This document shows, piece after piece, positions 35,050 to 62,020 of a stretch of DNA of 64,000 nucleotides. Source of the stretch: an uncultured Candidatus Binatia bacterium (lineage in GTDB: Bacteria; Desulfobacterota; Binatia; UBA9968; JAJDTQ01); NCBI GenBank assembly GCA_965213675.1, contig OZ243916.1, forward strand, positions 1,856,001 through 1,920,000, in the 5' to 3' direction. The position numbers and the translations under genes were made by a program. The first letter of the stretch is position 1. The number at the start of each line of letters is the position of its first letter. The notes beneath the pieces are model-generated. The model did no database searches. It saw only the letters and a program-made list of their open reading frames with translations, and had not been told where the DNA came from.

Positions 35050-35166
35050 CGTCATTCCCGCACCCCTCTTCCGTCATTTCCGCGAAAGCGGGAATCCAGG
35101 GGCGGGGTTCATCGGTCTGGCTGCCCCACCACCGCCCCCGGATTCCCGCTTTCGCGGGAATGACGG
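35050..35166. repeat. REP-like palindromic element pair (GTCATTCCCGCGAAAGCGGGAATCC family)
   Basis: CCGTCATTTCCGCGAAAGCGGGAATCC (35071-35097) is inverted with GGATTCCCGCTTTCGCGGGAATGACGG (35140-35166); partial copy at 35050. Confidence 0.85.
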
Positions 35167-36357: not shown

Positions 36358-36945
36358 CTAACAGTCTTCAGTGTCTTGCGCCCAAAGTCGCTCAACCGTC
36401 CTGCGATGCCGCGCGAGCGAGATGGCGAACGCCTCAATGGTCTTGCCGAGGCCGGTATCGTCCGCGATGAACAGGTTGACCCGCGGCAGTCGAAGCGCCT
36501 TGCGGAGCGGCTCCATCTGGTAGGCGTCGATCTTGATGCCGGCCCGGAACCGCGACTGGAAGAGATTCGGGTCGGTGGCGGTGACGCAGTTCCAGCGCAG
36601 CGTGTGGAGGAACGCGCTGAAGTGGCGGGGCGCGTCGAACCCGTTGGCGCCGATGGCGTTCCACGCCTCCACTTCAAGGATGCGCCGGTCGATCTCGAAT
36701 TCCCAGTAGACCTCCAGGGTCTGCCCTTGGGCGTCGTCGTCTGCGCAGGCAAGGCTGACGCGGCCCGATTCCGACTCCACCGCCTCCACCAGCCAGCGGC
36801 GTGAACGCACTTCGACGAGTTCCCCGACGTCGGGGAAACGTTCGGGTAATAGTCGGGCGGCGTCTTCCAAGGGCGTTCTCTCAAGCGGTGCGGGCAAGTC
36901 TGTAGTTGCTTTATCATATTCGCTGAAGTTGCGAGAATTGGCCAA
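36358..36945 (-). pseudogene. drmD: DISARM SNF2-like helicase DrmD, N-terminal fragment
   Basis: GELVEVRSRRWLVE, DDDAQG..LEVYWE, FLHTLRWNCVTATDPNLFQS.FRAGIKIDAYQMEPLRKALRLPRVNLFIADDTGLGKTIEA, then truncated just after Walker A. Confidence 0.8.
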
Positions 36946-36947
36946 AC

Positions 36948-36993
36948 TTGCCGATTATTATGTTGTCAAACATAATGTTCTTCTACATAATAA
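36948..36993 (+). promoter_or_regulatory. sigma70-like promoter overlapped by palindromic operator-like sites
   Basis: TTGCCG, 17-nt spacer, CATAAT. The palindrome ATTATGTT-GTCA-AACATAAT and the inverted repeat TTATTATGT...ACATAATAA overlap it. Confidence 0.6.
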
Positions 36994-36997
36994 GGAA

Positions 36998-38383
36998 ATG
37001 CAGTTCCTCGATCGCAGCCGCGAGATGGAGCGGTTGGACAATGTGCTGACACGGACTGGAGCCTTCGCCGTCATCTGGGGACGCCGCAGGATCGGCAAGT
37101 CGCGCCTTCTCATTGAATGGTCGCGGCGCCACCGGGGCCTGTACACGGTCGCGGATCAGTCCGTCCCGCCGGTGCAGCGGCGCTACCTGGCGGAAGCAGT
37201 CGCTGAACGATTCCCCGGCTTTGCAGACGTCGAGTACCCGGACTGGCGCTCGTTTCTGACGCGGCTTTCCGCCGACGCCGACCGCGCCGGCTGGCAAGGT
37301 CCGTGGGTGCTGGACGAGCTTCCCTACCTCGTCGAAGCGGACCCCACTCTAACCGGGGTCTTGCAGAACTGGCTGGACCGCCCGGAGCGGCGGTTGCGCC
37401 TGGTCGTGTGCGGATCGAGTCAGCGCATGATGCACAGCTTGATACTCGATGCTGCCGCTCCGCTCTACGGCCGGGCTGCCGAAGCCTTTGGCGTCCGCCC
37501 CCTGCCGGCGGGGCATCTCGCCGAGGCTTTCCCCTTCGACAAGCATCACGACCTGGTGACCGTCTATGCGCTGTGGGGAGGCATACCTCGTTACTGGGAG
37601 CTTGCCGAACCTTTCGGAAACGACATCGAAGCCGCGGTGGACACTCTCGTTCTCGACGCCGCGGGCCCCCTGCATGCAGAACCTGATCGGCTGTTGCGGG
37701 AGGAGACCCCTCCAGCTACGGCGTTGCGCCCCTTGCTGGACGTCATCGGCAACGGGGCGCACCGGGTCACCGAGATCGCGGGCCGTCTTGGCAAGCCCGC
37801 CTCCAGCCTGTCGAGACCGCTGGCATCGCTCACGGAGATGGGGCTGGTGCGCCGCGAAACGCCGTTCGGAACCGACCCGAAGTCCGGCAAACGGAGTCTC
37901 TACCGGATAGACGATCCCTTTCTGCGCCTGTGGTTTCGGGTGGTCGCACCCCATCGAGCGGCGCTGGCCGCTACGCCCCCGGAGACGCGGCTCGCATACT
38001 GGCGGCGGCACCGGCGCGGCCTTGAGGCTCTTGCCTGGGAGGAATTGTGCCGCCGGGCGGTGCCCCTCCTTCACCGTTCCGACACGACCCTGGGCCGGCT
38101 GGGTCCGTGGGAGCCCGCGCAACGATACTGGCGGGGCAATGCGCCGGAACTCGACATCGTCGCGCGTTCGGTTGACGGGAAACGATTGCTGGTGGGCGAG
38201 GCCAAGTCGACGACGCGCCCGGTTACGGCCTCCGCCGCCGCGCGCGTTCACTCGGGCGACCTGGCCGGCACTGAAGGCGCCGATGTTTGCCAAGCGCTGT
38301 TCGTTCCGGAGAGCGTGGCTGCGGACGCCCGGACCGGCATTCACATCGTCGATGCGCGAACAGTCATGAGCGTGCTGACATAG
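36998..38383 (+). CDS. Archaeal-type ATPase (ATPase_2) with winged HTH and DUF234/PD-(D/E)xK-like C-terminus
   Basis: FLDRSREMERL, WGRRRIGKS (Walker A), LDELPYL (Walker B), GGIPRY, YRIDDPFLRLWF and ELDIVA...LVGEAK; TAAGGA RBS. Confidence 0.85.
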   Translation: MQFLDRSREMERLDNVLTRTGAFAVIWGRRRIGKSRLLIEWSRRHRGLYTVADQSVPPVQRRYLAEAVAERFPGFADVEYPDWRSFLTRLSADADRAGWQGPWVLDELPYLVEADPTLTGVLQNWLDRPERRLRLVVCGSSQRMMHSLILDAAAPLYGRAAEAFGVRPLPAGHLAEAFPFDKHHDLVTVYALWGGIPRYWELAEPFGNDIEAAVDTLVLDAAGPLHAEPDRLLREETPPATALRPLLDVIGNGAHRVTEIAGRLGKPASSLSRPLASLTEMGLVRRETPFGTDPKSGKRSLYRIDDPFLRLWFRVVAPHRAALAATPPETRLAYWRRHRRGLEALAWEELCRRAVPLLHRSDTTLGRLGPWEPAQRYWRGNAPELDIVARSVDGKRLLVGEAKSTTRPVTASAAARVHSGDLAGTEGADVCQALFVPESVAADARTGIHIVDARTVMSVLT

Positions 38384-38796: not shown

Positions 38797-39183
38797 ATGT
38801 ACGAAGTGAAAAACCCCATCACGGAGGCCAAGGCCAACCCGGACATCCGCCATCTTTCGTTGTGGCGCACGGACCTGACCTATTTCTGGACCATCAACTG
38901 CGAAGCGAACATGCAGGACGACATGCACTACCACGAGAACGACGACCATGTCTTCATGGTCCTCGAGGGCCAGTGCACGGTGCGGACGCCGGAGGACGAG
39001 TTCGTCCTGAACCCCCACGACACCATCCTGCTGAGGTCGGGCCAACCGTACCAACTCTGCAACACGGGTGGGGACCGTCTGCTGCTGTTCGGCGCGGGCA
39101 ACTCCCAGGTGGACGGCAAGCCGCGCACGCGGGTGCCGCGGCGGCCCAGCCACATTCCGGTGAAGCAGCCCATCATCGCGTAG
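38797..39183 (+). CDS. Cupin domain protein
   Basis: MHYHENDDHVFMVLEGQC cupin motif 1; GGAGG RBS. Confidence 0.8.
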   Translation: MYEVKNPITEAKANPDIRHLSLWRTDLTYFWTINCEANMQDDMHYHENDDHVFMVLEGQCTVRTPEDEFVLNPHDTILLRSGQPYQLCNTGGDRLLLFGAGNSQVDGKPRTRVPRRPSHIPVKQPIIA

Positions 39184-39232
39184 AAGTCTTTTCCGCGCCC
39201 ACGTGGAAGCGCAAACTTCGAAGGAGGAAGAC

Positions 39233-39796
39233 ATGTTGCGACTACTGTCCTACGGTCCTTGACCGTATGCCCACAGGACAAGGCTTGTCCTGGCAGAGAA
39301 AGACATCCCTTACGAACTGGTCGAGTGCGACCTGAGGAACAAGTCGGAAGAGCTGGTCACCCTGAACCCCTACGGCAAGGTGCCGGTGCTGGTGGACGGG
39401 GACGCGGTGATCTACGAATCCGCGGTCGTCAACGAGTACCTGGACGAGAAGTTTCCCGACGTGCCGTTGATGCCGAAGGATCTGGCCAAGCGCGCCGAGG
39501 TACGCATCTGGATCGACTTCTGCAACACCCGGCTTCAGACCGCGGCCGGCAACATCCGCCACGACCACGAGGTGGAGAAGAACAAGAAGCGGCTGCGGCA
39601 GCACCTGGAGACGCTGGAAGAGCGCATGGCCGGGCGCGACTACATCGTCGACGACTACTCGCTGGCGGACATCACGTATGTGCCGTTCTTCACCCGGCAG
39701 GACGCCTACCGGACGTCCATCACCGAGGACCTGCCCAACGTGAGACGCTGGTGCAACACGCTGCTGGAGCGGCCGAAGGTGAAGTCCACTCCGTAA
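39233..39796 (+). CDS. Glutathione S-transferase family protein with in-frame UGA at codon 10 (probable selenocysteine)
   Basis: AAGGAGG RBS, ATG 39233: MLRLLSYGP-U-PYAHRTRLVLAEKDIPYELVECDLRNKSEELVTLNPYGKVPVLVDGDAVIYESAVVNEYLDEKFP. TGA is at 39260-39262, the CPY position; the ORF track captures only 39380-39796. Confidence 0.85.
39268..39295 (+). promoter_or_regulatory. Putative bacterial SECIS element
   Basis: Perfect 8-bp stem CAGGACAA-[GGC]-TTGTCCTG (39274-39292) with a G-initiated apical loop starting 20 nt after the UGA; can extend by TGC/GCA pairing. Confidence 0.7.
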
Positions 39797-39822
39797 GAGC
39801 GCTGACATCGGTCACGACGTCG

Positions 39823-40782
39823 ATGAAGGGCTCCCCCACACTACCCCGCCTGGATTCCCGCCTTCGCGGGAACGACGGTGGGGTGCGGGTGAATGACGGT
39901 GGTGTGCGCGGGGTACACGGAGCGGGGCCAGGGAATGACCCTTTTGAGGACGCCGAACTGGCGCGAAAGGTGGCCGAACTTCAGGCGCTGCTGAGAGAGA
40001 TGGGACAGGCCGTGGTCTGCTTCTCGGGCGGGGTCGACTCCGGCTACCTGCTCGCCGAGGCCGTGGATGCTCTCGGCGACAACGCTCTGGCGCTCACCGC
40101 AGTCTCTCCCAGCCTCGCGCCCGAGGAGGGGGCCGACGCCCGCGGCTTGGCCGAGAGCATCGGCGCCCGCCACCTGCTCATCGACACCTACGAACTGGAC
40201 GACCCGCGCTACGCCGCCAACCCCGTCAACCGCTGCTATTTCTGCAAGACCGAGCTTTACGGCAAGGCCATCGACGAGGCCGCGACCTTGGGCATGCCGC
40301 ACGTGCTGGACGGCTTCAACCTGGATGACCGCGGCGACCACCGCCCCGGCCGGAAGGCCGCGCGCGAGCGGGGCGTGCGCTCGCCCCTGGACGAGTTGGG
40401 TTTCACCAAGGCCGACATCCGCGAGGCCGCCCGGCGCATGGGGCTCCCGGTATGGGACAAGCCCGCACTGGCGTGCCTGTCCAGCCGTTTTCCCTACGGC
40501 ACCGCCATCACCCCGGAAAAGCTCACCCAGGTGAACCGCTGCGAGCGCGTGCTGCGCGAACTGGGTTTCCGGGTGTACCGGGTGCGCTACCATGACGCGC
40601 TGGCGCGCATCGAGGTGGCGCCGGACGAGTTCGACAAGCTGCTGCTGCCGGACGTGCGAGAAGGGATCGTCCAGCGTTTCAAGGACGCCGGGTTCACCTA
40701 CGTCAGCATCGACCTTCAGGGCTACCGCACGGGTTCCCTCAACGAGACCGTCCACAACAAGAGCGACAACCACAGCGTGTAG
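39823..40782 (+). CDS. larE: LarE-family ATP-dependent sulfur transferase
   Basis: FSGGVDS PP-loop, NRCYFCK, DGFNLDDRGDHRPG, WDKPALACLSSRFPYG and GYRTGSLN. Start is uncertain (ATG 39823 or GTG 39970). Confidence 0.9.
   Translation: MKGSPTLPRLDSRLRGNDGGVRVNDGGVRGVHGAGPGNDPFEDAELARKVAELQALLREMGQAVVCFSGGVDSGYLLAEAVDALGDNALALTAVSPSLAPEEGADARGLAESIGARHLLIDTYELDDPRYAANPVNRCYFCKTELYGKAIDEAATLGMPHVLDGFNLDDRGDHRPGRKAARERGVRSPLDELGFTKADIREAARRMGLPVWDKPALACLSSRFPYGTAITPEKLTQVNRCERVLRELGFRVYRVRYHDALARIEVAPDEFDKLLLPDVREGIVQRFKDAGFTYVSIDLQGYRTGSLNETVHNKSDNHSV
39851..39939. repeat. REP-like palindromic element with degenerate tandem copies
   Basis: TGGATTCCCGCCTTCGCGGGAACGACGG followed by GAATGACGG and GGGAATGAC copies. 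Confidence 0.75.
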
Positions 40783-61928: not shown

Positions 61929-62020
61929 CTGGTTTCCCGCGTTCGCGGGAATGACGATTCGGGGGGCCGTTGCTTCTCTCGGATGGTGTTTCGACACAGC
62001 CTGTCTCGCGGGAATGACGG
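61929..62020. repeat. REP-like palindromic copies
   Basis: CTGGTTTCCCGCGTTCGCGGGAATGACG and CTCGCGGGAATGACGG. Confidence 0.7.

Follow-up and report, generated by a model that had tools for sequence, protein, structure and literature searches.

A 'GST-like' (glutathione S-transferase-like) family of prokaryotic selenoproteins was described by Zhang, Fomenko & Gladyshev in 2005 from four Sargasso Sea sequences (PMC1088965). The Global Ocean Sampling survey of 2008 counted 12 selenocysteine (Sec) sequences in this family beside 1,036 cysteine homologues (PMC2398784), and reviews of 2022 and 2026 list it as uncharacterised (PMC9312934, PMC13188914). Here we analyse a gene with a single in-frame TGA in a 64,000-nucleotide stretch of DNA from an uncultured Candidatus Binatia bacterium (assembly GCA_965213675.1, contig OZ243916.1, positions 1,856,001 to 1,920,000), to which we refer as the window. 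On comparative evidence, positions 39233-39796 of its plus strand very probably encode a genuine Sec-decoded redox enzyme of GST fold.

In the accounts available, the published 'GST-like' proteins resemble the window gene in having a GST domain (COG0625 / PF13409), a UGA within the frame, a stem-loop downstream of it and homologues with Cys. Those accounts give the family no CxxU-type motif, which is consistent with the single-Sec U-P-Y motif of the window protein. The likeness to family representatives (PPR62222.1, MEK9676863.1) lies in the domain and in the Sec/Cys pairing, and is a comparison by description only. The published members come from marine surface metagenomes, whereas the lineage described here belongs to Candidatus Binatia, where it is near-universal in one order, often present as two paralogues, and truncated in public records. 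In the literature we found no described Binatia or omega-type Sec-GST beyond the listings of the 'GST-like' family. The window gene fits a new, unannotated Candidatus Binatia lineage of this known kind of selenoprotein, as far as sequence and published description allow them to be matched.

The gene comprises the following features, the third being the candidate Sec codon and the fourth a predicted Sec insertion sequence (SECIS):

39221..39227, plus strand, Shine-Dalgarno sequence AAGGAGG, 5 nt upstream of the ATG; aaggagg is retained before the ATG in genus-level loci
39233..39796, plus strand, putative selenoprotein coding sequence of 187 codons plus TAA, with GST N-terminal thioredoxin-like and C-terminal helical domains
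39260..39262, plus strand, UGA codon 10 (predicted Sec), in the catalytic Cys/Ser column of GSTs
39274..39292, plus strand, predicted SECIS hairpin with an 8-bp stem and a GGC loop, lying within codons 14-20 (H R T R L V L)

The GST frame runs from ATG 39233-35 to the stop codon TAA 39794-96, and its sole interruption is TGA 39260-62; read-through yields 187 residues. This product is an intact GST by Pfam, matching GST_N_2 (PF13409) over residues 10-72 (E = 2.4e-21; 76.5 bits against a cut-off of 25) as well as GST_N_3, GST_N and, at 6.5e-11, GST_C. The initial annotation, made from the nucleotides alone, had placed the ribosome-binding site, ATG, TGA and hairpin at exactly these positions and had recognised an intact GST N-terminal domain broken only by the TGA; both observations hold. 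It had further proposed that gene callers truncate the product to 138 residues. The truncation is real, and the open reading frame (ORF) listing of the window does give a 138-residue ORF with a GTG start (39380-39796), but the protein database entry for the window's own product has 136 residues (P0016) and those of relatives have 158, beginning MECDL. Across public protein sets the Binatia Sec-GST appears as an N-truncated 'glutathione S-transferase family protein' of 136-177 residues; one JGI call (P0026) places W at the TGA.

We examined the codon that occupies the TGA column in related loci. All 40 of the loci fetched have TGA in the same column with an ATG 8-9 codons upstream, giving the consensus M-x-x-L-x-x-x-x-x-TGA-P-[YF]-A-H-R-T-R-[LI]-V-L. 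An orthologue with exactly one in-frame TGA, 52-91% identical, was found in 38 of 40 relatives; in the remaining two genomes (G017 and G040) the best matches are paralogues of 36-39% identity that lack an in-frame stop. A wider scan of the genome collection, with one genome per species, returned 80 loci, of which 54 carry TGA, 26 carry Cys (TGT or TGC) and none any other residue. At the level of the order, 115 of 123 genomes have matches (E up to 1e-40), and among the matches listed (150 rows, with eleven more in the set) 147 of 150 have one TGA, at identities down to 51%. The three exceptions are two rows that start past the column at contig ends and one Cys form (G349:C222). These order-wide counts take in four unpublished genomes (5 rows), on which no conclusion hangs. 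When 301 genomes sampled from the phylum were searched at the same threshold, only two matched, both of the window's order, and the others gave none.

Metagenomes also contain full-length Cys homologues, P0039 (58% identity to the window protein) and P0046 (54%), which read G/S-C-P-Y-A-H-R-T-R through the column. For codon-level comparison we assembled 77 unique Sec-form coding sequences (CDS), obtained from 88 complete ones by removing duplicates, together with 27 Cys homologues; TGA is present in 77/77 of the former. The expectation that homologues would show either Cys or TGA here was thus upheld, and neither Ser nor Trp occurs at the column in any of the examined loci of the family. One of the 77 sequences stops after 105 codons and may be a frameshifted or broken copy; the candidate is L113, whose match length of 562 nt is no multiple of three.

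The same alignment points to translation both upstream and downstream of the TGA. Upstream, Leu4 is invariant in 77/77 sequences yet is written with all six Leu codons, so the first nine codons are under protein-coding selection. Downstream, the segment PYAHRTR..EK is invariant; at P11, A13, E22 and K23 the residue never changes while third positions vary freely.

The hairpin is formed by a 5' arm CAGGACAA (39274-81), the loop GGC (39282-84) and a 3' arm TTGTCCTG (39285-92). It spans 12-30 nt downstream of the UGA, with 19 nt between the UGA and the loop, which begins at +20. Published constraints on bacterial SECIS (bSECIS) elements include a loop of 3-9 nt, an upper stem of 4-16 bp, G in the first two loop positions, a UGA-loop spacing of 16-37 nt and a minimum free energy (MFE) of at most -7.5 kcal/mol (PMC13188914). 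As these constraints are given there, the initial reading of the hairpin as a SECIS agrees with them: it has a 3-nt loop that opens with two G, an 8-bp stem and a spacing of 19 nt. Taken by itself, the hairpin folds at -9.2 kcal/mol in the window and in 56/77 sequences (range -9.2 to -6.2), and the 45 nt after the UGA reach -7.5 kcal/mol or lower in 77/77.

Synonymous codon choice beneath the hairpin is nearly frozen. We calculated codon entropy for the 40 columns at which at least 90% of sequences share one residue with at least 4-fold degeneracy, and found that the five lowest values belong to residues 15, 16, 17, 19 and 20, the next lowest being 1.10 bits. Residue 17 is AGG and residue 19 GTC in 77/77; residue 15 is AGG in 72 and CGG in 5, residue 16 ACA in 70 and ACT in 7, and residue 20 CTG in 68/77. 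AGG is rare in the rest of the gene, where it is the codon for 68 of the 1019 Arg residues. Pairing is kept at five of the eight stem positions in 77/77 sequences, and the apical loop is GGA in 40 and GGC in 37. The outermost pair is C-G in 67, U-G in one, and U-A in one by compensatory, synonymous changes.

The Cys forms provide a control, which we regard as decisive at the sequence level for the tie between hairpin and TGA. The full hairpin is present in 0/27 of them; they make 2-7 of the eight pairs, with hairpin-alone energies of 0 to -5.5 kcal/mol. Sixteen Cys forms share the peptide PYAHRTR[LI]VL, encoded in 12 nucleotide versions, and in none is the hairpin retained. Within a single genome (G349), the Sec copy reads CAC AGG ACA AGG CTT GTC CTG and keeps the hairpin, whereas the Cys paralogue, with TGT in the column, reads CAC AGA ACA CGA ATC GTC CTG and has lost it. 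These comparisons indicate that selection at synonymous sites maintains the hairpin as an RNA element whose presence goes with that of the TGA. Scanned against Rfam (E up to 10), positions 39150-39400 yielded nothing but a miRNA match of 14.5 bits that we attribute to chance, the hairpin itself matching no Rfam family.

The genome also encodes the machinery to decode UGA as Sec, as the initial annotation had anticipated in listing selA, selB, selC and selD. The selA, selB and selD genes score 592.7, 378.6 and 377.3 bits, all above curated cut-offs, and are clustered at C1:2713784-2718389. The tRNA-Sec (selC) reaches 75.2 bits, the gathering score being 47, and is called by ARAGORN as tRNA-SeC with anticodon tca. 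Across the order, selA is found in 110/123 genomes and in all 27 genera. The window gene therefore shows the sequence-level features of a bacterial selenoprotein gene (a Cys-aligned UGA, conservation on both sides of it, agreement with the bSECIS model, and sel genes), and we infer that Sec is inserted at its codon 10. We also observed one in-frame TGA in selD (G000:C1:2717463-2718389), beside selA and selB, which points to selenophosphate synthetase as a second selenoprotein of this genome. Second copies with identical scores lie on small contigs, namely a Sec-GST at G000:C19:41884-42444 on the minus strand and a tRNA-Sec at G000:C4:3174-3264; given a contamination estimate of 8%, they are probably duplicated assembly contigs and not true paralogues.

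To place the predicted Sec among known active sites, we compared the window protein with structures in the PDB. For residues 1-30 alone the best match is human GSTO2 (3q18): residues 2-30 align without gaps to GSTO2 24-52, with U10 on Cys and UPYAHRTRLVL opposite CPYSHRTRLVL, so the initial assignment of an omega-type CP[YF] site finds support. Omega-class GSTs carry their catalytic Cys in a C-P-[FY] motif where helix 1 begins, and the Cys of this C-P-Y motif is that residue in GSTO2. U10 aligns likewise with the Cys of 4qq7 and with the Ser of tau-class GSTs (7dwf, 2vo4), being Ser13 of GmGSTU4-4 (2vo4) in a gapless alignment that sets query residue 4 on chain residue 7. Residues P51, E62 and S63 are invariant, V50 is nearly so (at least 90%), and the same residues stand in the alignments to 4qq7 and 2vo4; V50-P51 and E62-S63 match the positions that in GST structures supply the cis-Pro and contact the gamma-glutamyl group at the glutathione site. 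There is no second conserved Cys in the Sec-GST family, C32 and C97 being variable, and this favours single-nucleophile chemistry through an intermediate between the enzyme selenium and a thiol sulphur (Se-S-thiol).

Over the whole length, the closest solved structures are two SspA-like proteins of Burkholderia, 4qq7 and 6v91 (both with E about 5e-30); tau-class plant GSTs follow, and after them GSTO2 and GSTO1. The SspA-like proteins carry Cys in the same column (TTCPFSQRCRLVL) and conserve the VP and ES pairs; they are Cys forms of 207-211 residues. The omega-class enzymes (GSTO2, 3q18; GSTO1, 1eem) have a near-identical active-site motif and a single-nucleophile (monothiol-type) site, and match the window protein at full-length E-values of 8e-24 and 8e-22. 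Omega-class GSTs are about 240 residues long and have an N-terminal extension before strand 1. The window protein has Sec in place of Cys, 187 residues against 239-241, and nine residues before the nucleophile against 31; as it is without the long N-terminal extension, we do not consider it strictly omega-class. Its overall similarity to that class does not exceed that to tau-class GSTs or to the SspA-like proteins.

From these comparisons we propose the following mechanism. SelD and SelA would make Sec-tRNA(Sec), which SelB, recruited by the hairpin at 39274-92, would deliver to the UGA. Sec10, in U-P-Y-A-H-R-T-R-L-V-L, would take the place of the omega catalytic Cys or the tau catalytic Ser and would run a one-selenol, glutathione-dependent redox cycle. 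In this cycle the selenolate would attack an oxidised substrate, which may be a glutathionylated protein, a small disulfide, a dehydroascorbate-type acceptor or a hydroperoxide; an enzyme Se-SG selenenylsulfide would form; and a second thiol would regenerate the selenol. If the protein is a genuine Sec-GST, we put thioltransferase/reductase chemistry of omega type at about an even chance. We favour this chemistry, with peroxidase activity as its main alternative.

Several results weigh against the reading of the gene as a SECIS-directed, glutathione-dependent Sec-GST. The folding energy of the window hairpin is unremarkable (MFE of -13.9 kcal/mol over 56 nt, z = -0.86, equalled by 38/200 shuffles), and 15/27 Cys forms likewise reach the generic limit of -7.5 kcal/mol over 45 nt, so that energy does not discriminate. 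We therefore rejected folding energy as evidence for the hairpin. Since the single-sequence energy lies within chance, the case for its reality is comparative. Covariation is thin, the stem being near-invariant with one compensatory pair change in 77 sequences. No NCBIfam equivalog was found for the window protein, the best model being SspA (NF007016) with 101.9 bits against a cut-off of 314. Finally, searches of the genome, which is 97.7% complete, for glutathione synthetase gave no match to TIGR01380 or PF02955; PF03917 also gave zero matches, in a search whose control was likewise silent.

The last of these results bears on the thiol partner. The window's genome has about 15 GST-like matches and two genes for glutamate-cysteine ligases of the GCS2 family (L142 1324-2667 and L143 1354-2625), with no ATP-grasp partner among the neighbours of either. 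As two such ligases are present and no glutathione synthetase was found, glutathione as the thiol co-substrate is assumed and not certain, and gamma-glutamylcysteine or another thiol may be used.

The alternative that survives best accepts the selenoprotein and differs on its physiological role, which would be hydroperoxide reduction: the selenol would be oxidised to selenenic acid, converted to Se-SG and returned to selenol, as in a glutathione peroxidase but on a GST scaffold. Enzymes that reduce peroxides typically employ Sec in preference to Cys, which speaks for this role. So do engineered seleno-GSTs (Ser-to-Sec tau, theta and zeta enzymes), in which Sec occupies the same catalytic Ser/Cys column as U10. 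In GmGSTU4-4, chemical conversion of Ser13, the residue on which U10 aligns, to Sec is reported to raise kcat 177-fold and kcat/Km 2746-fold over wild type with cumene hydroperoxide as substrate and to confer H2O2 reduction (PMC10812501), and other semisynthetic seleno-GSTs are described as behaving similarly (PMC9944854). In the engineered enzymes, as published, Sec was incorporated by chemical or auxotrophic means and activity was assayed as peroxidase, whereas in the window gene Sec would be encoded by the UGA and SECIS. The evidence on the other side is that the active-site motif is near-identical to that of GSTO2, a Cys-type thioltransferase/reductase, that Cys replacements within the Sec clade are easier to fit with thiol-disulfide chemistry, and that no peroxide-related gene lies alongside, the neighbours being a cupin gene upstream and a gene without family downstream. 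Given a genuine Sec-GST, we consider peroxidase chemistry possible on analysis of this evidence, though doubtful. A fuller version of the same idea, which we regard as speculative, is that the protein is a natural seleno-GST acting as a thiol peroxidase, a convergent glutathione peroxidase on a GST scaffold that maybe uses gamma-glutamylcysteine or another thiol; it would then be a core redox enzyme, often duplicated, in an order of sponge- and soil-associated Binatia.

It is improbable that the gene encodes an SspA-like protein without catalytic activity, whose role would be to bind a partner such as RNA polymerase. Such a role would agree with the top PDB sequence matches, the Burkholderia 'stringent starvation protein A' entries 4qq7 and 6v91, and with SspA as the top NCBIfam model; the score of that model, however, is far below its cut-off, hence the lack of an equivalog. 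The cost of Sec at the catalytic column and a SECIS frozen across the order argue for chemistry at that site, as do the invariant E-S and P and the nearly invariant V of the glutathione site.

Still less probable is that the TGA is a true stop, ending a 9-codon leader, with an N-truncated GST translated from GTG 39380 or from the 'MECDL' start and the hairpin acting as a translational regulator. Gene callers do yield products of this sort (136 residues in the window and 158 in relatives), but the segment between the TGA and these late starts (PYAHRTRLVLAEKDIPYEL) is the most conserved of the family, with synonymous sites that are free outside the hairpin, and it includes strand 1 and helix 1 of the GST N-domain, which Pfam matches from residue 10. 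Cys homologues continue straight across the column, and the hairpin vanishes exactly where TGA becomes TGT. It is hardly credible that the TGA at 39260-62 marks a pseudogene or stems from a recent nonsense mutation or an error of sequencing, for although a lone in-frame stop in an intact gene has the look of a fresh nonsense mutation, the TGA recurs in well over 100 independent genomes (including the 147/150 orthologue matches above, to 51% identity), a contig from DNA run X1, possibly the window's own source, is identical over the whole stretch, and RNA-library contigs from two studies bridge the site with no difference there among those listed, the full set having 70 more.

We used a quick tree of 91 rows, with the Sec/Cys column masked, to examine the history of the family. 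The 76 Sec forms and three Cys forms of the Binatia lineage fall on one long branch (support 99), and the cyanobacterial and gammaproteobacterial Cys homologues fall outside it. The three Binatia-lineage Cys forms are nested in a subclade of 24 rows (support 99), and the tree calls for at least three changes of Sec/Cys state. Rooted on the outgroup, the tree implies that Sec was gained once and that Cys returned at least twice, an order of events that depends on the root. The Binatia Sec-GST clade is made up of two groups with a common frozen SECIS, typified by 'MKLFSYGP-U' and 'MKLYSCHT-U', and many genomes of family f3 hold one gene from each; examples with a gene in both groups are G034 (L045, L055) and G037 (L043, L056). 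The window's genus has a single Sec-GST gene. A distant Sec form, L138 (DATFMP010000054.1, from 2997), is 45% identical and reads NKQA-TGA-PYAQRTRIVLSEK. It has its own, different 7-bp hairpin at the equivalent place after the UGA and sits on a long branch, where its placement in the tree is unsure; its sequence suggests that it may have acquired Sec independently at the same column.

The gene upstream of the GST is as follows:

38797..39183, plus strand, cupin-domain gene encoding 128 residues, 49 nt upstream of the GST start (Pfam Cupin_2, 4.9e-08)

This gene is adjacent in 29/71 relatives' loci, all of them the most window-like (L023-L041, L062-L070 and L084), and is a possible operon partner of the GST. 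The downstream gene (39799-40782, plus strand) has no Pfam family above threshold and is 80-92% identical in the most window-like loci. As the cupin gene and the downstream gene are kept only in these most window-like loci, we rejected synteny as a functional clue. We also rejected a 507-residue plus-strand ORF (39259-40782) that overlaps the GST in another frame and is conserved only after about residue 181; its conserved part is taken as the separate downstream gene and the overlap as an artefact of high G+C content. Further upstream, 36929-38383 (plus strand) encodes a 484-residue protein with ATPase_2, an IclR/MarR-type helix-turn-helix and DUF234, found upstream in 12/71 related loci.

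Contigs of sponge metatranscriptome libraries from two studies, about 91% alike, span the ATG, TGA and hairpin. They give a weak hint of transcription, presence in such a library being no proof of it. A REP-like (repetitive extragenic palindrome-like) sequence, TTCCCGC-NTTC-GCGGGAA, lies at 39855-39872, 59 nt past the GST stop codon. It has four copies in the window against 0.02 expected, the others being at 35077-35094, 35143-35160 and 61934-61951. Genome-wide, 59 copies were counted when up to 1 mismatch was allowed, whereas the reversed control gave 0; many copies form inverted pairs with 60-75 nt between them. In contigs from metagenomes and RNA libraries the palindrome gives rise to a large spike in depth.

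The read-through gene corrects a systematic annotation error: the active site is missing from the Binatia-lineage public records examined, and gene callers cut the Sec-GST short throughout an order of uncultured bacteria. For twenty years 'GST-like' selenoproteins have stood in family listings with no function assigned, and the Binatia lineage would provide a deep, clean and tractable example of them, with dozens of orthologues and with natural Sec-to-Cys replacements accompanied by decay of the SECIS. It would enable a direct comparison of natural with engineered seleno-GSTs. A SECIS that is frozen at the nucleotide level across the order may also be a convenient model for the specificity of SelB for its SECIS in an uncultured phylum.

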